Below are positions 19,561-31,225 of a stretch of 64,000 nt of DNA, one piece after another. The position numbers and the translations under genes were made by a program. Source of the stretch: Candidatus Anstonellales archaeon. GTDB taxonomy: Archaea; Micrarchaeota; Micrarchaeia; Anstonellales; J096. The stretch is taken from NCBI GenBank assembly GCA_038740615.1, contig JAVYLQ010000001.1, forward strand, positions 13,865-77,864, read 5' to 3'. The first letter of the stretch is position 1, and every line of letters begins with the position of its first letter. Under the pieces are notes generated by a model, which worked only from the letters and a program-made list of their open reading frames with translations, ran no database searches and had not been told where the DNA came from.

Positions 19561-19589
<29 letters not shown>

Positions 19590-22500
19590 CTTTTTTCCTT
19601 ATGAAGAGTTTTGGATAAATATGCATAGATATAATTTCGTTGAGCAGCAATTTGAAGGCATATGGAATTTCTATATGTCCTACGTTATTACTTCCACACA
19701 CAGGACATACGTATTCTTCAGAAGGTTCGTCATAATATGCGAAACTGCCACAGTCTAAACACACATGTTCTACATGTTTATCACTATTCTCTAACAATCT
19801 ATCTATCACTGTAGCTGCTGCTCCATATCCTAGTAGAGTATCTCTTTCCATCTCTCCAAATCTCAACCCTCCCTCTCTACTTCTTCCCTCAGTAGGTTGA
19901 GAGGTTAATAATTGCACTGGTCCTTTGGTTCTACTATGCATTTTATTTGATACTAGATGATGTAATCTCTGATAATATATAACCCCTATAAATATTTTAA
20001 CCTTTATTTTCTCTCCAGTAACACCATCGTACATCTCCTCCTCTCCCCATTCATCAAATCCTAGGGATTTTAACTCTTCGACAAACTTCTCTAGTTTATC
20101 ACCGGAGAAAGGAGTGGCATCTACATATTTACCAGTTATACATGCTGCCTTGCATCCTAACATTTCTAATAGATGACCTGCAGTCATTCTACTAGGTATT
20201 GCATGTGGATTTATTATCAGATCAGGAACGATTCCACTTTTTGTGAATGGTAAATCCTTCTGATCAACTAACATTCCTATTACTCCTTTCTGTCCATGTC
20301 TAGAACTGAATTTATCACCTATTTCTGGAATCTTATTCAATCTGAATCTAACCTTTATCACTACCTCCCCGTCCTGATTCTCTGTTATCATAACTCGATC
20401 AACTCTACCCTCTTCCCCTTCCTTAACCTTTATAGAACTATCTTTGTATTTCTCTTCTGTTGCTCTAGTAAAATCCAAATCCTCTAAGAATCTAGGTGGT
20501 GATAGCTTTCCTATAATAACATCATTTTCCACATATTTTTCCTCCAATCTAGGTAAGCCATCATCATCTAACTTCTCATAAGAAACATTGTGTTTAACAT
20601 TTATAATCATGGAACCTGGCTTTGTGATTTTATCTCTGAATTGGGCATAATACTCAACAATCTCGGTGGAATACGTTTTGAACATTATTGATCTACCAAA
20701 TCCCCTATCTACAGCGGACTTGTTTATAACAATTGCATCAGTCATGTTCCATCCTCTGTAACTCATCACTGCAACCACAAGATTGTACCCAGCTGCTCTC
20801 TTGGCTAATCCTAAGTAATCATATGTTCTAGTGGTTGCTATTGGACGTTCATTATAGTAATTAATATATGCCTTAGTGTCATATCTGAAATTGAATGCAG
20901 AATTATATATCCCTAAACTCTGTTTTAGCATACCGCTAGCCATAGTGAGTCTAGGTGAAGAGTTGTATTCAGGGAATGGTAGAAGAGCTGCGGCTATTCC
21001 AAATAGTGTTGATGGATCAATCTCCATATGAGTATACCTCTCATCTCCAAGATCATTCATAGATTTTGCTATAAATGCATTTTCCTCTTCTTCCGCATCT
21101 AAATACTCTATATATCCCATCTTAACCAATTGTTCCCAAGAATACTTACCTGATTTAACCTCATCCCATATCCTCAAAATCTTCAGCTCACCTCTCTCTA
21201 TAACTAGATAAGGTCTTCTCAATCTACCTGGGGAAGTATTGATATAAAATTCATTAAACTCTTCTCTAAAATAGAAGTTTACAGAAGAGCTAATTTCACC
21301 CGCTCTTCTTGCACTAACAAGAGCAATAAATAGTTCCTTACCATTTTTAACTTCTCCTACGTAATCCCCATCTAGATATACTTGAACATTGTGTTCTGAT
21401 CTTGAATCTGTTAAGTATGGATTTAGAATAGCAAGTATAGGGGTGACATCAACTTTTTCCGTGGTTATTTCTGCCATTATAGCCATATTCTTTAGCAATG
21501 ATGTTGATGCACCTTCTGGGGTCTCAGAAGGACATATCTTTCCATACCAGGTCCCATGCAGATCTCTTGCCTTAAAGTGTGGATGTGATTTGTCCAAAGG
21601 AGAGAGAATTCTTCTTCTGTGACTCAGAGATGATACAAAACTAACCCTATCCATAACCTGTGATACTCCTGTCTGACCAGCTATCCAGTTACCCGTAGCC
21701 ATAGCGTACATTACTTTTGTTGTGAATACATTTGGACGGATTAGAGTACTGAATTTTATAACTCTTCTACCCCTTATTATGCTCTTATTTATCTGGTTTT
21801 TAGTATCAGCAATCAACTGATCAAAAGCATATCCAAATAACTCAGCTATCAAATCTCCAGCTAGCTTAATCCTCTTATTACCATAATGGTCTCTATCATC
21901 TTCCTTTATCTTATTATAAGCTAATAGAGATGCTTTCATACACATTCTAAGCAAGTATTTAGCCTTCTTCTTATTAATCTCTGGATTCACATCAGTTCCC
22001 AAGTGAGGCAATACAAAATTAGACATCAATTTGTTGAAATGATTCAGCTGAACTTCCCATTCATTGTTTGGTTTTAATCTCTTTATCAGATAAACAAGAG
22101 GATCAGCAACAAAATCCTCCTTCTTTTCAATTTCCTGTTTGTTTAGCATATAGTCAAAATATGCTTCTGGATACTGTTTTAGAGCATTCTGTATTTCCTC
22201 ATCACTCATACCAAGAGCTCTTATTACTACAAATACATTCAACTGAGGAACAGAGTGGGGGAAATCTATATAGAACAGACCTTCATCAGTTCTCCTTATT
22301 GTTAATTTAGCTCTGTATATTCCTCTAGTAGAGAACACTTTTGCTATAACATCTTCCTTGTTCTCCTTGACAACCAGAATCTTATTAGGTACTAAATCCT
22401 CTATACCTATAAGAGTTCGTTCAGTGCCGTTTATAATAAAATATCCTCCAGGATCCATTGGATCAGTTCCCTTATAGATTCTTTCCTGATTGCTTCTGAG

Positions 22501-22989
22501 AGCTCTATTAAGATTGCACACTACTGAATTTACCATTACAGGGAGATCTCCTATATGGATGTTCTCTTCTTTTCCATCAAACTCATCAACATAATTCCCA
22601 TTGGCATCATATTTCCTTATGTATCTCTCTACATCGATTAGAACTCTTCCTGAATATGTTAGATCTCTCATCAGAGCCTCTGCTGGGAATAGTATAAAGG
22701 TATTACCAGATTGTTCACTCTTCATAGGAGGTTCTAGCTTGATATTTACTATTTTGTATACTATTTTATTTCGATTATCCTCATTGGCCATGAAATTTCT
22801 ATTACCTAGTTCCACCTCTATCTCATTTTCCCTATTTTTCATCTTGTTTTCTAAATACTCTCTCATTCCTTCCTGAACAAACCTATTATAGGAATCTATC
22901 TGCTGTTTTACTAGATTGTTGTATTCAAAATATTTTTTCAACAAAATTTTAGATATATCATTCATTTGGTAATTCATATTTCTCACCAA
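19561..22989 (-). CDS. rpoB: DNA-directed RNA polymerase subunit B (unsplit Rpo2)
   Basis: 1142 aa single ORF; GDKFSSRHGQKGV and C-terminal Zn ribbon CxxC..CxxC; overlaps rpoA' and rpoH starts/stops. Confidence 0.95.
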
Positions 22990-23299: not shown

Positions 23300-24451
23300 T
23301 CATTTTCTAAGCTTCCTAGCTCTAACAATCCTATCTGCAGCTTCTCTAATAGCATTCTCTCTCATATGTTTAGGATCTTTGCTAAAGAGTTTCAAGAACT
23401 TGTTTAAGATTCTATCTCGGGTTTTCTGTTTCATAGTCTCCTCATCTAGATAATTACCAGTGATATTGTAAACCCACTCCATATAACTACCTATCACACC
23501 TCCTGAATTAGCTAATATATCTGGTACAATTATACTGTTTAATCGATCATCGACATTCCAATCTACTGGATTATTTGCCATCTCAACTATCCATTTAGCC
23601 TTTATATAATTGTAATTATGCTCACCTATTTGCATCTCCAAAGCTGCAGGAACCAACACATCAACATCCAACTCTAAGATCTCCTTATTATCGATACTAT
23701 TCCCTCTGTAACCTTCAAAGCTACCATGTTGCTGTTTGTAGGCTAGCAAATCTGCTATATTCAACCCATTCTCATTATAAACACCCCCTTTACTATCCGA
23801 TATGGCAATCACTTTATATCCAGCTTCATCCAACATTCTAGCCAGATTTCCCCCAACATTTCCAGCACCTTGAATAGCTATTTTTAGATTTCTCCTCTCA
23901 ATATTCTTAGCTATATAATCTATAATTACAAATCCCCCATACGATGTAGATATTTCTCTAAATGCTATCCCACCTAACTCAACTGGTTTTGATGTGAACA
24001 TCCCCATATCTCTGGTACCAACAGCATTCTGATATGCATCCAACATCCAAGCAATTATCTGACTATTAGTATTAACATCCGGTGCAGGAATATCTTTCCA
24101 AGTTCCTATAATATCTCTAAAGGCATTTGCATAATTTCTGGATAGTTCCCTCAATTCTTCTCTACTTAACCTCTTTGGATCGACTACCACTCCCCCTTTA
24201 GCTCCACCATAAGGTAACTCCATAAGGGAATTCTTAAGGCTCATAAGTAATGAAAGCATCTTCAGCTCTTCTTCAGTCACATTTGGATGGAACCTTATTC
24301 CACCTTTAGAAGGGCCTAAAGAGGAATCATGAATTACTCTATAAGCATCGTAGAGTTTATCCCCGGCTCTAATCTTGCTATGATATATTCCCTCCCAATC
24401 TATCAATTCCTGATAGCCTAACTCCGAGAGTCTGTGAATCATCCTATTCAT
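23300..24451 (-). CDS. gdhA: Glutamate dehydrogenase
   Basis: GPSKGGIRFHPNV, PYGGAKGGV, Rossmann IAIQGAGNVGG; 383 aa (compact). Confidence 0.85.
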   Translation of the reverse strand: MNRMIHRLSELGYQELIDWEGIYHSKIRAGDKLYDAYRVIHDSSLGPSKGGIRFHPNVTEEELKMLSLLMSLKNSLMELPYGGAKGGVVVDPKRLSREELRELSRNYANAFRDIIGTWKDIPAPDVNTNSQIIAWMLDAYQNAVGTRDMGMFTSKPVELGGIAFREISTSYGGFVIIDYIAKNIERRNLKIAIQGAGNVGGNLARMLDEAGYKVIAISDSKGGVYNENGLNIADLLAYKQQHGSFEGYRGNSIDNKEILELDVDVLVPAALEMQIGEHNYNYIKAKWIVEMANNPVDWNVDDRLNSIIVPDILANSGGVIGSYMEWVYNITGNYLDEETMKQKTRDRILNKFLKLFSKDPKHMRENAIREAADRIVRARKLRK

Positions 24452-24504
24452 AGTCTATTTAGAAATAAACATCGGTTTTAAAAAATAATCACATATAGTT
24501 AATT

Positions 24505-26181
24505 GTGGACGAATTTGAAGAAATCCTGATATCAACCCCTATAGACAAGCTCATAGAGATAATTAAAAATGAGCAAGAGGTCACTAGCTCATATTTAGCT
24601 CTAAAAACAAAATACGATCAGGCTACGATAGAAGAGTGGGTGAGATATTTAGAAAGAGAGGGGATTGTTGAGATTAAATACCAACTTAATGAGATGCATA
24701 TATCTTGGAACTCTCCTAAAAAAGAAGAATTTGATACGAGAAAGGAGAAATTTAAGAAACGGGCAGATACAGTAGAGAAGCAGATAGAACAGCTCAAAGA
24801 GGACGTAAATATAGAAATAAGAATAGTATATGAGTTATTAGACCAGATCAATAGTAAGATTGATGAAATGAAGTTAGATAGGGAAAAATTGATGACATTT
24901 ACTACTCAATTTACCAAATTCAGAGAAGAATTGAATAAAGATTTGGAGATAATATCGAGAGATATTGCTAGAATTTCGCAAAATGTTGATGAGAAATACA
25001 GGCAAGTATCTTCTCTTGCCACCCTCATATCGGAAGTGTCAGTAGCTGATGTTCAGGAGCTTGAACAGAACATACGCAAATCTCTAGATGAGAAGCTTAA
25101 AATGATAGATACGAGAATTCAGGATTTGGATATATACGTCTCCAAACTTCAGAACATATCAGAGGAGGACATAAATAAAATATACAGTAGATTAGAAGAA
25201 CTAGAACAGATGAAAGAGATTATCAGAGGTTCTGAATCTATAGAAGGAGGATTGAGGGATCTGATAAGGAAATATGAATATATTCTAGAAGTATTAGCAG
25301 AGAGAGAAAAACTCCTGAAGGAATTGGATGAATTAGAGCAGAGAAATATTGAATTGCAGAGATCTCTGAATAATCTTAGTGGAAACATATTTGAGATTAG
25401 TGAAAAATTGCAGAAACTAGCGCAGGAATACTATGATATTCAAGGAAAATCTGCAGAACTAGCCACTCAGATTAAATCAAACCAAGATATTCTTAGGAAC
25501 ATTCAGGTGGAAGATACTAGTATAATTGATCAGGCAAAACAGATGCTAGAGACTCTAAGAAGTTTTAAGGATGATGTGAAATCTTTTGAGAAATTGTCTA
25601 AGGAGACACATGAGATCTTAGAGAGAATACAGGATATAGGTAAGGTAAGAATGAATCTAGAGAGGTATAAGAGAGAATATTTGCTTGAAGTTGCCAAGTA
25701 TGCTGAAATGGTTAATGAAGATCTAAAGACTTTGGAAACATTATTGGATATAAAGAAAAGAATGATTTCGGAATTGTCAACATATAAAGATACTCTACTT
25801 GGATACGAAGAGGAGTTTAAGAAATATGTAAAATTATTCATAGAGCAAAAGGAATCATTTGAATCTATGCGAAAGACTCTGAATCAGATGATTCAAGAGG
25901 GAGAATTTGCGGAAGCTCTGAATAGGATTAATTCTACTCTAGGGTCTTTGCAACAGGTAGAACAGAAACTAGAGGAAGCGAGAAGATTGCTAGTACAATT
26001 AGAGGAGATAAAAATAAATATAAATGTTCTGACTAAAGAGTTAAATCTATTAAAACTTAGAACTCCTGAAAATGAGAGGGAAATACAGCAGAAAATAGAA
26101 CATCAGGAAAAGAGTCTGAAAGAACAGGAGATAAAGCGAAGGAGTTTAGAGGAATGGATCAGAAGTTTTACAAAGAAATAA
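24505..26181 (+). CDS. Hypothetical protein: N-terminal winged-helix-like domain followed by ~450 aa coiled coil
   Basis: N-terminus (SYLALKTKYDQATIEEWVRYLEREGIVEI) resembles a wHTH. The remainder is heptad-rich (E/K/L/Q) with no enzymatic motif. Confidence 0.5.
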   Translation: MDEFEEILISTPIDKLIEIIKNEQEVTSSYLALKTKYDQATIEEWVRYLEREGIVEIKYQLNEMHISWNSPKKEEFDTRKEKFKKRADTVEKQIEQLKEDVNIEIRIVYELLDQINSKIDEMKLDREKLMTFTTQFTKFREELNKDLEIISRDIARISQNVDEKYRQVSSLATLISEVSVADVQELEQNIRKSLDEKLKMIDTRIQDLDIYVSKLQNISEEDINKIYSRLEELEQMKEIIRGSESIEGGLRDLIRKYEYILEVLAEREKLLKELDELEQRNIELQRSLNNLSGNIFEISEKLQKLAQEYYDIQGKSAELATQIKSNQDILRNIQVEDTSIIDQAKQMLETLRSFKDDVKSFEKLSKETHEILERIQDIGKVRMNLERYKREYLLEVAKYAEMVNEDLKTLETLLDIKKRMISELSTYKDTLLGYEEEFKKYVKLFIEQKESFESMRKTLNQMIQEGEFAEALNRINSTLGSLQQVEQKLEEARRLLVQLEEIKININVLTKELNLLKLRTPENEREIQQKIEHQEKSLKEQEIKRRSLEEWIRSFTKK

Positions 26182-26206
26182 AAACACTTATCATTAAATA
26201 TAAGTC

Positions 26207-28885
26207 ATGATTAAAATATTTATAATAAGTACAATTCTTCTCTTATCTGGGTGTATTGATCAACTCAGAATACAATTAACTAAATCTGCTACAGATTACT
26301 ATAGACTAGCAGAGAGTGAAAATATATCGGTAAGTTTTGATAAGAACAAGATTGAAGATTTTATGAAAAGGGTAAATGAAGAGTATGATAAGAGAGATAA
26401 TGCAACCCTATATGCATTTGTGTGTAATTACACTCAATTAAAAAAGGTTGGTTTTGACAAATTCAAAGCCTATTGGAAATATCTATTCACCAAAGATTCT
26501 AAAGTGATGTTTGATGAATCTCTAATAGGAGGCAAGTGTTGGATTCAGAATGTGTCCCATTTTCCAAGTATAGAAGCGATAATATTCTCCGTGTTTTTAG
26601 AACCTGAAGAGATCAGAAACAACACTGCATTTTACAAAACTTATCTGGATAAAGATGGAAATGTTGTGGTTGAGGAGCCACCATCGGATCTCGATGAAAT
26701 AAGGAGACTCTACAAGATATTTGATAGACATGTATTCTTTGGTTTAGCATCGGGTCCATCCTTTGGAGATTTCAATGAACTCAATCCATTCTGTAATAAC
26801 AGCCTTAGATATCCTGTAAAATTCATCACTGGGACAGAGAACCAGTATTTGATTCCTGCAACTCCAGAAATAAGAGCTGCATGTTACTTAGATCTTGGTT
26901 ATATACCTATATACGTATTCTATGCTAGAAATGGTATTCCAGAAGTAGATAATTCATACATACTGGTTTCAAGATTAGTAGATATGAATTCTCCGGATAG
27001 GGAAGCAATAGGACCAGTCTTCTTATTCTCGGAGGGTTCATTAACACCCTCACAGCTGCTCAAAGGATTGGAAGAATATACTCCTGGTGCAGATAGATAC
27101 ACCGGTAGAGTTAGAGCTCAGATAGTAGGATGGAAAACTCTGTGTCCAGATTGTATCGTAGGATTAACAGTGCCTTTTGATATCAGCCCTAATGAGTTGA
27201 AAGAGCTTAGGGATATGATTAGAAATGATCCTTGGTTGTATTCAAATATATCTATAATAGGATTTGGTATAGATGCAGATCGATTAAATAATAGATCAAA
27301 CTTCCATGAAATGATTCAGAGAATAGAGATGATTGTAAAATTCGCTAGGGATCTTGGTAAACCTTCTGCAGCTCTGTATATGTATATTCCTCAGAGCTGG
27401 ACAGAGAGGAAGATCAGAGCTGATGGATTTGAATACAGTGGATTAGATTACATCATGAAAAATTTCTATTCAATAGATGCAGTAGCTAGTTCGAATGTAT
27501 TTAATCTGGCTGGGAGAGGTTTGATAATGATGCCCACCCTCCCTCTAATACCAGAATCCATGCAGATATTATTAGGCAAATCCTCTGCAGTATCGGTTCT
27601 AGATACTGCAATGAACCCTTATGAAGATGCATTCTCGTATACATTAAGCTATTGTAAGGATTATTTTAAAGTAGGCATAAACTCCCCTCTAATATTCTCC
27701 TCATCTGGTGTTGATCTAAAAAACATACAACTAACTCAGAAATCTGAGTTTTACCAGGATCAACCACAATACAGAGAACCCAGATTTACTCCTGATAAGA
27801 GATTTACTATAAACGACAAGGATGATACTATTTTCAAGTGTGTAGGATGTTTCTTGATCCTGAATAGTACTCAGGTAGGAAATTTCAAATCAATATTCAA
27901 TCTAGATACATATAAACATAAATGTGAAGAACCGTCTCCTCAGATTATTAATAAGATTAAACTCTACTCAGATATAGTTGATCTAGATCCACCTTTCTTA
28001 AGAGCATTGATTGAACAGTTTAGCAATTATGACAAGTGCCACGTATCATTTGTAGATTCAAAAGCTGAACAGTTAGAGAGATGCGGACACAACCTGGAGT
28101 TCTCTGATATACAATCCGATCTAGCTAAAGCAGGATGCTCTGTAAGCAAGAAATCTGATTATGTTTGTGGATTTGGGGTGATGGATGTTAAAATAGATAT
28201 TACTAAGGAGATATTAGAACCTTGTATCCCATCTAAAGGATACATTAGAGACATGATCTTTGACGAATCTATTAATCTATGCAAGGGCGCAATTATGTTA
28301 GCAAACGCATCAGATGGTGCTGAAAAGATTATAAATGAATATCCCAAGTATATGTTAGACACTAAATATATCGAAGAGAGGTATTTATTATATAGAATGA
28401 TTTTAACATCTTTGGTGTATGATCAAGGATATAATTTCAGTAAAGCAACAGTAAGATTCTTTGAGGGGCTTGTAGATGAACTGAAAATAGTTGGGCTTAC
28501 TGGTGATAAGAAAAAAGATAACCAACTATGTCTGGATTATATGGCACTCCCACACTTCAATAATTATTGTTGCATTATCATATCAAGTAGCGAAGCGGAG
28601 ATGGTTAATCCATATTGTGTTAAAATAACTAACACAGAGGCATACTGGGATTTCCTATTAGGAATGAAGCTTGCACCGGGAATGATGATAACTTCCGATC
28701 CTCCATATTCAATAGGATTTAACAAAGCTTATGAAAAAGTTGAACCAACACTAAAAGTGATGTCAAAATATTTTGATGTATACCAGAAATGCAAGGATTG
28801 TGCAGATGAGAAATGGGCTGATAATGTAATAAAGAAGAAAAAGCAAATATGTGCAAACCTACCAGATTTACCGATATGTAAATAG
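26207..28885 (+). CDS. Large secreted Cys-rich lipoprotein (892 aa), candidate surface/S-layer-like glycoprotein
   Basis: Signal peptide with lipobox-like LLSGC, about 28 Cys spread through the protein, many N-x-S/T sequons, no TM segment after the signal. Confidence 0.6.
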   Translation: MIKIFIISTILLLSGCIDQLRIQLTKSATDYYRLAESENISVSFDKNKIEDFMKRVNEEYDKRDNATLYAFVCNYTQLKKVGFDKFKAYWKYLFTKDSKVMFDESLIGGKCWIQNVSHFPSIEAIIFSVFLEPEEIRNNTAFYKTYLDKDGNVVVEEPPSDLDEIRRLYKIFDRHVFFGLASGPSFGDFNELNPFCNNSLRYPVKFITGTENQYLIPATPEIRAACYLDLGYIPIYVFYARNGIPEVDNSYILVSRLVDMNSPDREAIGPVFLFSEGSLTPSQLLKGLEEYTPGADRYTGRVRAQIVGWKTLCPDCIVGLTVPFDISPNELKELRDMIRNDPWLYSNISIIGFGIDADRLNNRSNFHEMIQRIEMIVKFARDLGKPSAALYMYIPQSWTERKIRADGFEYSGLDYIMKNFYSIDAVASSNVFNLAGRGLIMMPTLPLIPESMQILLGKSSAVSVLDTAMNPYEDAFSYTLSYCKDYFKVGINSPLIFSSSGVDLKNIQLTQKSEFYQDQPQYREPRFTPDKRFTINDKDDTIFKCVGCFLILNSTQVGNFKSIFNLDTYKHKCEEPSPQIINKIKLYSDIVDLDPPFLRALIEQFSNYDKCHVSFVDSKAEQLERCGHNLEFSDIQSDLAKAGCSVSKKSDYVCGFGVMDVKIDITKEILEPCIPSKGYIRDMIFDESINLCKGAIMLANASDGAEKIINEYPKYMLDTKYIEERYLLYRMILTSLVYDQGYNFSKATVRFFEGLVDELKIVGLTGDKKKDNQLCLDYMALPHFNNYCCIIISSSEAEMVNPYCVKITNTEAYWDFLLGMKLAPGMMITSDPPYSIGFNKAYEKVEPTLKVMSKYFDVYQKCKDCADEKWADNVIKKKKQICANLPDLPICK

Positions 28886-28889
28886 AACG

Positions 28890-29531
28890 ATGTTGAAACT
28901 GGGTTACAACCAATTCCCTAGTTCTCAAATGGATACAGTAAGGTTTAAGTTGTCAAATTATACAATTGAATTACGTAGATGCTGTAGAAATTACTCTGAT
29001 ATAATGCACTATCACATTCAATCTCCAGAAACGATCTATATTATCTCTGGGAGTGGCAAGTTAATATATAATATAAATAATAGAACGAATGAATTGAATT
29101 TTAGTGAAGGAGAGTATATAAGAGTATACGCAAAAACACCACATTCTATATATGTCGATACAGATAGTATAATACTTACTATTCAAGAAAATATAGATAG
29201 AATCGATCATAATGGAGATTATTTGGCTCGAGGTCTATTTCCATTTAAAAGTAATATCAAAAACCCAATTTCGTTTAGAGATCCTAAGATCAAATTATCA
29301 ATATATCGAATACAAGATTATGAGCTGCAAAAACAATCTCCCGATCTCAAAAATTACTATCTCATAATAGTAGGCATGAGCAAATTCAAATATGGTGGTA
29401 AATGGTATGATAGAGGAATTCTGGTAATAAACAGAGATAATATGGAAGATTTGGAGAATTTACCTGATCATGGGGCTATATTGAAGATATCATCAAAACT
29501 TCTTAATCGAATATTCCTGGACCCATCATAG
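28890..29531 (+). CDS. Cupin-fold domain protein
   Basis: HYHIQSPETIYIISGSGKL...FSEGEYIRVYAKTPHSIY matches the two-motif cupin pattern. Start moved to the Met after the upstream stop. Confidence 0.5.
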   Translation: MLKLGYNQFPSSQMDTVRFKLSNYTIELRRCCRNYSDIMHYHIQSPETIYIISGSGKLIYNINNRTNELNFSEGEYIRVYAKTPHSIYVDTDSIILTIQENIDRIDHNGDYLARGLFPFKSNIKNPISFRDPKIKLSIYRIQDYELQKQSPDLKNYYLIIVGMSKFKYGGKWYDRGILVINRDNMEDLENLPDHGAILKISSKLLNRIFLDPS

Positions 29532-30835: not shown

Positions 30836-31225
30836 ATGTTCAGAAAGATAGATAAGGATCCTAAGATATTAGAACTGAATATTGGTATTGAGATGGATGA
30901 TTATATTTTGGTCTCGGATTATGATTTGAGATTACTGTATGATTATGGTTTGTATTCAGAAAAACCGGATGTTGATGAAAATATATACAGAACATACAGA
31001 GAGCTATATGAGAAGGCATACAACCCAGAGATATTTGTTTACGATAATTATACTTACATAAAAATAACCAAGCAGAAATATCTTCGACACAAACCTAGGT
31101 ATGAATACATAATTGCGTTTGATCTAGATCTGAACAGACATTTTAGAGCTGCAGTAGCTTCAAAACTCAAACTAATAGTATTGCACGATGGTAGATATTA
31201 TATAATAACACCTTCATCTCTATAG
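30836..31225 (+). CDS. Hypothetical protein (129 aa)
   Basis: ORF only; no recognisable motif. Confidence 0.35.
   Translation: MFRKIDKDPKILELNIGIEMDDYILVSDYDLRLLYDYGLYSEKPDVDENIYRTYRELYEKAYNPEIFVYDNYTYIKITKQKYLRHKPRYEYIIAFDLDLNRHFRAAVASKLKLIVLHDGRYYIITPSSL

Follow-up and report, generated by a model that had tools for sequence, protein, structure and literature searches.

The locus and its question

DPANN archaea rely on cell contact, and the surface proteins that mediate it are almost all annotated as hypothetical. In the genome of a member of the Anstonellales (Micrarchaeota, DPANN), a gene for a large lipoprotein of 892 amino acids (aa) lies between genes for a 558-aa coiled-coil protein and a cupin, which raises the questions of what the lipoprotein might do at the cell surface and whether its two neighbors have any part in it.

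The three open reading frames (ORFs) were found, with the arrangement and spacings given in a preliminary description, in the window, by which we mean the whole 64,000-nucleotide (nt) stretch of DNA that was analyzed. The 558-aa ORF (positions 24505 to 26181, plus strand) starts with GTG and is divergent from gdh (23300 to 24451, minus strand). The two are separated by a 53-bp spacer (24452 to 24504) carrying the A/T-rich TTTTAAAAAATAA, which on a reading of the sequence is a possible archaeal TATA region with a putative promoter role. The 892-aa ORF (26207 to 28885, plus strand) begins 25 nt after the 558-aa ORF, and the 213-aa cupin ORF (28890 to 29531, plus strand) begins with an ATG at 28890, 4 nt past the stop codon of the 892-aa ORF; an alternative cupin start, GTG at 28851, would give a protein of 226 aa. 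At its 3' end, the cupin gene shares a 64-nt overlap with the convergent glycyl-tRNA synthetase gene. For the 558-aa and 892-aa proteins, orthologues were found at 33 to 98% identity, and all three ORFs are real genes. No paralogues were found within the 64-kb window, and the claim that none of the three proteins directly matches a named family was upheld.

The 892-aa protein belongs to a Micrarchaeota family of lipoproteins

Hydrophobicity in the 892-aa protein is confined to one stretch, the N terminus, at the end of which lies L13-S14-G15-C16, a sequence that fits the lipobox pattern [LVI][ASTVI][GAS]C. G15 and C16 are kept in 90 and 92%, respectively, of 141 family sequences, the set over which all conservation percentages for the family were taken. 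Hydropathy and family conservation thus both point to residues 1 to 16 (26207 to 26254, plus strand) as a signal peptide with a lipobox, as had been proposed. The protein is ~100 kDa, has a pI of 5.3, and contains 11 N-x-S/T sequons, compared with 5.2 ± 2.1 in shuffled sequences, so that the abundance of sequons noted earlier exceeds expectation; 4 of them are retained in all eight clade members. It is also cysteine rich, as described, although the number of cysteines is 25 rather than about 28.

The statement that the protein has no known enzymatic motif held for the single sequence, which matched nothing in Pfam (no match at E ≤ 1) or NCBIfam, but it failed at the level of the family and of the structure. 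Whereas a PDB sequence search with an eight-sequence clade profile gave no match, a profile search found at least 134 clusters of relatives of 700 to 1,000 aa, the named members of which are all Micrarchaeota and which share the lipobox, many conserved cysteines, and the central domain. Among 61 relatives, 13 matched Pfam SLT and 4 matched Peptidase_M23; no match to Pfam GH models was found among these 61 members, and an S-layer Pfam domain was absent from them and from the window protein. The positions that are near-invariant across the 141 sequences are mostly Cys, Gly, and Pro.

With the 61-sequence alignment, AlphaFold gave a structure model (m55e469b97840) with a pLDDT of 88.9 and a pTM of 0.88, an earlier run with 8 sequences (pLDDT of 48) having been unusable. 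From the model and conservation, the signal peptide is followed by a small α/β N-terminal domain (residues 17 to 171; 26255 to 26719, plus strand) with near-invariant C73 and C111, the clade-only HMM of which matched just one sequence (P0020) beyond the close clade. At the other end is a Cys-rich, mainly helical C-terminal extension (residues 766 to 892; 28502 to 28885 with the stop codon, plus strand), the cysteines of which are C775, C788/789, C804, C862, C865, C882, and C891. Between the two lie the domains described below, and at the fold level the family may be identified by a lipobox, a glycoside hydrolase (GH)-like TIM barrel, which we describe as novel, and an SLT domain, with M23 sometimes added.

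A (β/α)8 barrel forms the conserved core of the family

Residues 172 to 500 (26720 to 27706, plus strand) make up the family's conserved core, and a clade HMM of this region matched 125 family representatives. DSSP analysis of the AlphaFold model gave eight alternating strands and helices with pLDDT values above 90, i.e., the (β/α)8 barrel fold of clan GH-A. The best Foldseek matches in the PDB, for the whole model and with query ranges not reported, were GH10, GH5, GH53, and GH2 enzymes (E of 1.6e-4 and weaker, TMt of ~0.5), and a viral library gave GH5 matches together with about 12 SLT/GEWL proteins.

Two carboxylates stand out in the barrel. Glu276 (nt 27032 to 27034) comes directly after strand 4 (residues 272 to 274) and is Glu in 87% of the 141 sequences, and Asp325 (nt 27179 to 27181), after strand 5, is Asp in 77% and Glu in another 11%. 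E276 is a candidate for the acid/base Glu that clan GH-A enzymes have at the end of strand 4, but the residue preceding it is Ser or Thr, not Asn; Q305 is conserved also. No conserved acidic residue that could be the strand-7 nucleophile Glu follows the strand at 387 to 393 in the 141 sequences, in which Y391 (89%), K385, and W398 are conserved instead. Therefore, the barrel may work by a different mechanism or be noncatalytic.

A second domain probably derives from lytic transglycosylases but has a remodelled active site

Family motifs, a chain of HMM matches, and Foldseek indicate that residues 575 to 765 (27929 to 28501, plus strand) form a domain derived from SLT (GH23 lysozyme-like) proteins. 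The link is transitive: the window protein itself did not match Pfam PF01464 at the gathering score, but the clade HMM matched the family member P0029 (E of 4.4e-7), which in turn matched Pfam SLT at 25.2 bits, as did P0051 at 32.2 bits (gathering score, 21.3). With the whole model, not the domain alone, as the query, the viral LT_GEWL/SLT matches of Foldseek had E values of 0.02 to 0.4 and probabilities of up to 0.99. In the PDB, the SLT region had profile matches to just two entries, EtgA and a chain labelled "lytic transglycosylase c."

In the alignment, the SLT motifs of the family are ES, GLMQ, and YxG. Position 605, where the SLT catalytic Glu belongs, is Glu in 99 of the 141 sequences, but it is Phe in the window protein (F605, nt 28019 to 28021) and Leu or Thr in the rest of the clade, so that the catalytic Glu of the E-S motif is absent from both. 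Likewise, D660 (nt 28184 to 28186) stands in for the Gln of GLMQ, the clade pattern being GxMD. Whereas 90 sequences combine E605 with Q660, all nine clade sequences combine [F/L/T]605 with D660 and an acidic residue, [E/D], at 603. S606, G657, M659, Y738, and G741 are retained in the window protein. Conservation of this domain is 37 to 60%, compared with 41 to 69% for the barrel, and the SLT-like domain of the window subclade would thus appear to be under purifying selection, with similar constraint across domains. Having lost the catalytic Glu but being no less conserved than the remainder of the protein, the domain may serve for binding or may contain an active site that has been re-wired.

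Such losses might be taken to mean that both glycan-related domains are dead and that the 892-aa protein is a pseudoenzyme, a purely structural envelope lipoprotein. The missing SLT Glu, the missing strand-7 nucleophile, and the predominance of Cys, Gly, and Pro among the near-invariant residues all fit this reading, but it leaves the conservation of E276, D325, Y391, K385, and Q305 over 141 divergent sequences, the invariance of D660 and E/D603 in the clade, and the similar constraint on all domains without a place, and we consider it unlikely.

It had also been suggested that the protein is a major S-layer glycoprotein or an adhesin, which would have a passive rather than an enzymatic role. 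Export, a mass of ~100 kDa, a pI of 5.3, and 11 sequons, 4 of them invariant in the clade, are what this would lead one to expect, and SLP_Mh, an experimentally identified Micrarchaeota S-layer protein, is similar in mass (about 101 kDa) and pI (5.55) and has a GH-like segment in HHpred (bioRxiv 10.1101/2021.04.28.441871); the lack of the SLT catalytic Glu points the same way. However, SLP_Mh is near sulfur-free (bioRxiv 10.1101/2021.04.28.441871), whereas the 892-aa protein has 25 cysteines. Moreover, S-layer Pfam domains were found neither in this protein nor in 61 relatives, SLT and M23 hydrolase domains occur in the family, and a lipobox anchor with compact enzyme-like folds would suit an enzyme or binding protein better than a lattice former. 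Because of the SLT homology in the family, the GH-A-like barrel in the model, and the cysteines, the suggestion is unsupported, and we regard it as quite unlikely. An S-layer pair of the SlaA/SlaB type was ruled out separately because the coiled-coil protein has neither a signal peptide nor a transmembrane (TM) segment.

The 558-aa protein is a segmented coiled coil with an acidic head

The 558-aa protein consists of a small winged-helix-like head (residues 1 to 71; 24505 to 24717, plus strand) and a coiled-coil rod (residues 72 to 558; 24718 to 26181, plus strand). Its sequence contains no Cys, TM segment, signal peptide, or Walker A motif and only three prolines. Heptad analysis gave a signal over about residues 71 to 515 that is broken near 169 to 196, 240 to 250, 365 to 392, and 449 to 462, so that the preliminary description was right that there is no ATPase and no TM segment but not that the coil is continuous; with four interruptions, it is segmented. 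The head is ~75% identical to that of the orthologue in the related lineage L001, and an alignment of the two full-length proteins needs a single gap in 558 aa and gives 37% identity, the length of the coiled coil being exactly conserved. An SMC/Rad50/BrxC identity was rejected as an artefact of coil composition: there is no ATPase, and the SMC/Rad50 matches involved only coiled-coil segments of the models and scored 9 to 26 bits against cutoffs of 567 to 1087. Searches for further homologues via an alignment of the N-terminal domain and metagenome scans with the 558-aa protein found none, a PDB search with the head gave chance-level matches only, including two MarR entries (E of about 1), and nothing relevant was found in the literature on Micrarchaeota coiled-coil proteins.

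The best profile match of the head, spanning the winged helix-turn-helix (wHTH) and the start of the helix (residues 14 to 101), was to NCBIfam Sul12a (NF053609; E of 5e-6); MarR, DeoR, and KIN17-WH matches were all subthreshold. Sul12a, Sso10a, and TrmBL2 dimerize through an antiparallel coiled coil, and Sul12a is small and basic (PMC9025068). Like them, the 558-aa protein has an N-terminal wHTH-like domain that leads straight into a long amphipathic helix, and it could be imagined as a giant nucleoid protein of the Sso10a/Sul12a type. However, the match reached 26.7 bits, far short of the cutoff of 150; at about 490 aa, the coil greatly exceeds the 40 to 60 aa of the known proteins; and the head, rather than being basic, is strongly acidic (pI of 4.4, net charge of about −8). 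This acidity is common to the heads of all orthologues (pI of 4.4 to 4.6, net charge of −6 to −8), the whole protein having a net charge of −23. With a score below the NF053609 cutoff and no basic wHTH, the protein falls outside the Sul12a/Sso10a family, and we think a nucleoid role improbable. More probably, the 558-aa protein would be a scaffold in the cytoplasm, an acidic coiled coil that forms dimers and has a winged-helix head like that of Sul12a or TrmB; the cytoskeletal or scaffold role suggested in the preliminary description may thus apply.

The three genes do not form a conserved unit

The cupin matched Pfam Cupin_2 at 28.3 bits (gathering score, 27.2; E of 1.5e-6) and has the HxH(x)4E(x)6G metal-site motif HYHIQSPETIYIISG, which is kept in its L002 homologue too, so that score and motif both place it in the cupin superfamily. 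Of four related lineages, two (L004 and L001) lack the cupin gene, and the L002 cupin is only 25% identical, whereas its neighbors are 56 to 76% identical. As judged from these comparisons, the cupin is a fast-evolving, variable accessory gene outside any conserved unit.

The genes for the 558-aa and 892-aa proteins, on the other hand, keep the same order and strand in each of the five lineages with a 558-aa gene. They overlap by 4 nt in L001 and L002, which could mark a real functional link, and are 25 nt apart in the window; the divergence of one protein also keeps pace with that of the other (62/56, 64.5/62, and 36.5/33% identity). Together with the fixed length of the coil, this might mean that the proteins are one module in which a cytoplasmic ruler or scaffold positions or regulates a glycanase at the cell surface, where the cell touches its host or divides. 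However, the whole block through the glycyl-tRNA synthetase gene, a 129-aa ORF, and DUF92 is as syntenic as the pair, and genes generally lie close together in this genome, with 25 of 33 same-strand neighbor gaps in the window being 30 nt or less. In addition, the L006 and L007 homologues of the 892-aa protein (30% identity, same remodelled SLT site) have other neighbors, with no adjacent coiled-coil gene; other neighbors also surround the L008 homologue, and neither protein has a membrane span that could join the cytoplasm to an outer-leaflet lipoprotein. We therefore consider a single module rather unlikely.

What looks like a cluster mostly reflects the compactness and high synteny of the genome, and the coiled-coil and cupin genes are probably just neighbors of the lipoprotein gene. 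The three-gene cluster put forward earlier thus does not hold as a conserved unit, the cupin being absent from two lineages and the coiled-coil gene lying beside the lipoprotein gene in one clade only. Of the two findings that the preliminary description had named as speaking against it, homology of the 892-aa protein to an enzyme family and loss of the synteny in relatives, each was made in part.

Proposed mechanism

Taken together, these results make it reasonably probable that the 892-aa protein is an exported, probably lipid-anchored, disulfide-rich surface protein with two glycan-processing folds, of which the SLT one has been remodelled. The protein would exit through Sec, would probably be anchored to lipid at Cys16 and N-glycosylated, and could be stabilized by up to 12 disulfides. 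Two glycan-processing folds would thereby be displayed at the cell surface. In the first, a GH-A-type barrel, the carboxylates of Glu276 and Asp325 probably take part in catalysis or substrate binding. The second, toward the C terminus, would be the domain that stems from SLT lytic transglycosylases, the ancestral role of which was most likely cutting of a murein-like cell wall glycan of neighboring cells, since Glu-Ser and GLMQ are kept in most of the family and M23 is added in some members. In the window subclade, the SLT domain would mainly serve as a glycan-binding or positioning module for the barrel; less likely, it could be a catalyst re-wired via Asp660 and Glu603. The 558-aa gene would be co-transcribed with the lipoprotein gene, without a demonstrable functional partnership of the two products. 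Against this scheme stand the lack of a Pfam, NCBIfam, or PDB sequence match for the window protein and the modest fold matches (E of ~1e-4, TMt of ~0.5).

Two reports describe cultured Micrarchaeota with wall-less Thermoplasmatales hosts (PMC5864196, PMC8975820). Such hosts, which have no murein, count against murein as the substrate.

A bolder and very unlikely reading is that the hot-spring Anstonellales/Micrarchaeota clade has retargeted a former murein enzyme to a nonmurein glycan, e.g., one in the glycocalyx or S-layer of a host archaeon. The SLT site, rebuilt by the changes of Glu605 to a hydrophobic residue and of Gln660 to Asp and by a new acid at 603, would bind or cut this glycan, and the place where this happens would be organized by a coiled-coil "ruler" in the cytoplasm that is co-transcribed, does not vary in length, and has an acidic winged-helix head. 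If this were true, the lipoprotein and the ruler would belong to an apparatus for host contact that has yet to be described in DPANN archaea.

On the preferred reading, a fold-level identity can now be given to a phylum-wide Micrarchaeota protein family, and a subclade is flagged in which a lytic transglycosylase site has been remodelled and yet is held under selection. Residues that can be tested (E276, D325, E603, and D660) provide a handle on the question of whether the symbionts target the murein of bacteria, process the glycans of archaeal hosts, or remodel the envelope of their own cells.

Comparison with known systems

The barrel resembles clan GH-A glycosidases (GH10 xylanase 3niy, GH5/26 mannanase, GH53 galactanase, and GH2) in its eight strands and in the conserved Glu right after strand 4, but it has T/S-E in place of the N-E motif and lacks a conserved Glu after strand 7, and identity is just 8 to 14% at a TMt of ~0.5, with no Pfam GH model matched in 61 members. 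The second domain shares with family 1 lytic transglycosylases of the SLT/GH23 type (PF01464; EtgA, PDB 4xp8) the Ser-bearing helix of E-S, G-x-M, Y-x-x-G, and, in the model, a lysozyme-like fold. It differs in having Phe for Glu, Asp for Gln, and large Cys-rich insertions, and the protein is archaeal and joins the domain to a TIM barrel and a lipobox.

The LytM factors EnvC and NlpD of bacteria have degenerate cell wall hydrolase domains that serve as binding or regulatory modules. By analogy, the window protein may likewise have kept a hydrolase fold under selection after catalytic-residue loss, in the context of an envelope lipoprotein, although the fold is SLT here and LytM there, and no partner enzyme is present here except the fused barrel.

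The closest precedents lie within DPANN itself. Large extracellular proteins with murein-like lytic transglycosylase domains have been described in this group (bioRxiv 10.1101/2021.01.12.426361; PMC9723730), and another report mentions lytic transglycosylase genes in three Micrarchaeota genomes (PMC5864196). Like the 892-aa protein, these proteins are exported, large, and SLT-domain bearing, come from symbiotic archaea with reduced genomes, and have been proposed to bind or degrade the walls of neighbors; for fam00969, the likeness is by description. The window family differs from them in being Micrarchaeota-wide, smaller (700 to 1,000 aa), and lipobox anchored, in having an unannotated TIM barrel rather than an SLT domain as its core, and, in the window clade, in lacking the catalytic Glu. 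We concluded that the 892-aa family is a variation on the known DPANN theme of extracellular lytic transglycosylases.

Layout of the locus

The segment is compact and archaeal, with a GC content of 35%, and its minus strand carries an rpoA/rpoB/rpoH block and a gene for a Glu/Leu/Phe/Val-type dehydrogenase. A 53-bp divergent spacer separates the dehydrogenase gene from three plus-strand ORFs, which encode a 558-aa coiled-coil protein (positions 24505-26181, GTG start), an 892-aa protein (26207-28885, starting 25 nt past the 558-aa ORF), and a cupin that starts with an ATG at 28890, 4 nt past the stop codon of the 892-aa ORF. Identical or near-identical proteins in the databases are labelled "Candidatus Anstonellales archaeon" or "Candidatus Micrarchaeota archaeon," which places the organism among the DPANN archaea; the nearest genome record is MAG isolate JZ-3.bins.121 (98% identity). 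The preliminary description of the three ORFs was borne out, with small corrections to a cysteine count and to the continuity of the coiled coil.

Gene packing in the window is extreme: 25 of 33 same-strand neighbors (ORFs of ≥150 aa) lie ≤30 nt apart, and eleven such pairs overlap by 4 nt in the ATGA manner, so that operon inference from spacing is unreliable in this genome. The genes for the 558-aa and 892-aa proteins overlap by 4 nt in two related loci (L001 and L002), but such tight spacing is the common pattern here. The two genes are likely cotranscribed. The rpoB gene (19561-22989, minus strand) is a single unsplit ORF, listed with TTG as its start codon. It shares 32 nt at its start with the end of rpoH and 29 nt at its end with the start of the rpoA' ORF, and the actual start codon of rpoB may lie further downstream.

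A Micrarchaeota-wide family of predicted lipoproteins

By itself, the 892-aa protein (a predicted lipoprotein, called the lipoprotein below) had no match in Pfam, NCBIfam, or PDB sequences, and a word-indexed search returned only 7 relatives (33 to 98% identity). An exhaustive search of 1.8 billion representatives with a profile of the protein and its 7 relatives (E ≤ 1e-3) found at least 134 proteins, mostly of 700 to 1000 aa, with matches that chiefly covered query positions about 175 to 400 and reached about 610. All named members are Micrarchaeota "hypothetical proteins" from Anstonellales, Bilamarchaeaceae, or unclassified lineages. Of 141 aligned sequences, 90% keep the lipobox residue Gly15 and 92% keep Cys16, and some 20 cysteine positions show 65 to 98% conservation, a pattern that fits a family of exported, disulfide-rich lipoproteins. 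The window protein has 25 cysteines rather than the ~28 first counted. Its reported wealth of N-glycosylation sequons held up (11, versus 5.2 ± 2.1 expected), and four are invariant in the clade of close relatives to which it belongs.

A predicted TIM barrel resembling clan GH-A

AlphaFold modeling with an 8-sequence alignment gave a pLDDT of 48, and modeling with 61 sequences gave a pLDDT of 88.9 and a pTM of 0.88. In the latter model, residues 172-500 form eight strands alternating with helices (strands 179-182, 202-209, 235-240, 272-274, 317-321, 350-356, 387-393, and 439-443). Foldseek comparison of the model with the PDB returned GH10 xylanases, GH5/26 mannanases, GH53 galactanases, and GH2 glucuronidases (best E 1.6e-4, probability 1.0, TMt about 0.5, identity 8 to 14%), and comparison with BFVD returned GH5 proteins. 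Residues 172-500 are thus predicted to form a clan-GH-A-like TIM barrel, one recognized by no Pfam model in any of the 61 family members scanned.

In clan GH-A the acid/base residue follows strand 4 and the nucleophile follows strand 7. Glu276 lies directly after strand 4 and is Glu in 87% of the 141 family sequences. Asp325, after strand 5, is Asp in 77% and Glu in 11%, and Gln305, Lys385, Tyr391, and Trp398 are likewise conserved family-wide. The family alignment contains no conserved acidic residue after strand 7, so that the barrel is GH-like without being a canonical GH-A member.

An SLT-related C-terminal domain with a remodeled active site

Pfam scans of the family detected SLT (PF01464) in 13 of 61 members (best E 7.7e-9) and Peptidase_M23 in 4 of 61. 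The family consensus carries the classic family-1 lytic-transglycosylase motifs (RA..W.ES.F.P.C..S, C.A.GLMQ, FNPF, and Y.G), and the only PDB sequences matched by the family profile were those of two lytic transglycosylases, EtgA and a chain with the name "lytic transglycosylase c"; both matches are weak (E 0.07 to 0.6) and cover the ES-motif helix. An HMM built only from residues 575-765 of the window's clade retrieved P0029, a representative from the profile search (E 4.4e-7, with calibration to the full library of 1.8 billion), which itself matches Pfam SLT at 25.2 bits, above the gathering score of 21.3. By this chain of matches, the C-terminal domain is SLT derived. About a dozen LT_GEWL/SLT transglycosylases in the BFVD search (E 0.02 to 0.4, probability up to 0.99) agree with a lysozyme-like fold.

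In 90 family sequences, a catalytic Glu at window position 605 occurs together with the GLMQ Gln at position 660. The window's clade, which takes in the 30%-identity homologue P0020 (881 aa, similar to a protein in locus L007), departs from this in each of its nine sequences: position 605 is Phe, Leu, or Thr, position 660 is Asp, and position 603, Trp in most relatives visible in the alignment, is Glu or Asp. The canonical lytic-transglycosylase mechanism cannot operate in this clade. Ser606, Gly657, Tyr738, and Gly741 are nevertheless kept, and within the clade the SLT-like domain (37 to 60% identity) is as conserved as other domains (the barrel, 41 to 69%) and is therefore not decaying. It would serve either in glycan binding, for which degenerate LytM factors offer an analogy, or in catalysis via a relocated carboxylate.

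The preliminary description had proposed that the lipoprotein is a major S-layer glycoprotein or adhesin. An experimentally identified Micrarchaeota S-layer protein, SLP_Mh, is glycosylated, nearly free of sulfur, and of about 101 kDa (bioRxiv 10.1101/2021.04.28.441871). The 25 cysteines of the window protein, the lack of any S-layer domain in Pfam scans, and the enzyme folds of the model all speak against this reading, which we consider quite improbable.

The coiled-coil protein

Residues 1-71 of the 558-aa protein are winged-helix-like, with a best match to NCBIfam Sul12a (E 5e-6, residues 14-101) and subthreshold matches to MarR, DeoR, and KIN17-WH. In Sul12a, Sso10a, and TrmBL2, a wHTH is joined to an antiparallel dimerizing helix (PMC9025068), and the junction of head and helix here is thus of the same kind, although the Sul12a match (26.7 bits) is far under the cutoff of 150. 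All orthologues have an acidic head (pI 4.4 to 4.6, net charge -6 to -8), and the net charge over the full length of the protein is -23, which argues against DNA binding. As first described, the protein contains no ATPase motifs; the coiled coil, reported as continuous, is segmented, with a heptad pattern over about 490 residues and four or five conserved breaks. Its length conservation is unusual (one gap over 558 residues against the L001 orthologue, at 37% identity) and suggests a defined rod or bundle. Homologue and metagenome searches found no relatives outside the clade. Our preferred reading, given with low confidence, is a cytoplasmic dimeric scaffold with a protein-binding head.

Gene order in related genomes

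We compared the window genes with all retrieved related loci by tblastn. The order 558-aa gene, lipoprotein gene (33 to 98% identity), glyRS (glycyl-tRNA synthetase, minus strand), 129-aa ORF, and DUF92 (minus strand) is kept in L001 to L005. Of the proposed three-gene cluster, then, the first two genes stood in these loci, but the cupin is not present in L004 or L001. The L003 cupin (L003:2822-3460) is 89% identical to that of the window (28890-29531), whereas flanking genes are 97 to 100% identical and the strains 98%, which suggests relaxed or diversifying selection; the L002/L005 cupin is 25% identical, versus 56 to 76% for its neighbors. The window protein matches Pfam Cupin_2 marginally above threshold, and its HxH...E...G motif is intact and is kept in the L002 homologue. 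The cupin is a dispensable accessory gene that diverges rapidly. At the 3' ends, it and the convergent glyRS gene share 64 nt (29468-29531; 34 nt in L002), an overlap of unusual length even in such a compact genome. The 129-aa ORF (30836-31225, plus strand), which sits between glyRS and the gene for the DUF92 membrane protein, has no Pfam match and recurs at this position in each of the five related loci (49 to 100% identity); it is a real, uncharacterized small protein.

In L006 and L007 no coiled-coil gene adjoins the lipoprotein homologue. There (L006:5610-10036, L007:28-4608), the 30%-identity lipoprotein is preceded by a conserved protein of 127/128 aa, hydrophobic at both termini, whose end overlaps the lipoprotein start, and is followed by a 482- to 514-aa protein in which a RelA_SpoT nucleotidyltransferase domain was detected (E 2e-9 to 3e-10); such an alarmone-synthetase-like neighbor is unexpected for a DPANN archaeon. 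In the Anstonellales locus L008 (203-9271), the family member is P0031 (756 aa), whose SLT site has the canonical E-S/GLMQ form. Two multi-TM proteins of 366 and 322 aa are encoded immediately upstream of it, and it is also preceded by a 1555-aa membrane protein that bears a Cys4 zinc-ribbon-like motif at its C terminus; Pfam matched none of the three. This cluster may encode a surface or secretion apparatus with the SLT protein in a VirB1-like role.

Comparison with known systems

One might picture the lipoprotein as a retargeted glycan-processing surface enzyme organized by a cytoplasmic coiled-coil ruler at the site of host contact, a conjecture to which we give very little credence. The lipoprotein does belong to the known DPANN theme of extracellular lytic transglycosylases, which includes fam00969 of Pacearchaeota and Woesearchaeota (bioRxiv 10.1101/2021.01.12.426361), GH23 genes in Woesearchaeota (PMC9723730), and LT genes that have been noted for three genomes of Micrarchaeota (PMC5864196). 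Its family is nonetheless distinct, unannotated, and Micrarchaeota-wide: its core is a GH-like barrel of a novel kind, and in the clade of the window protein the SLT site has been rebuilt.
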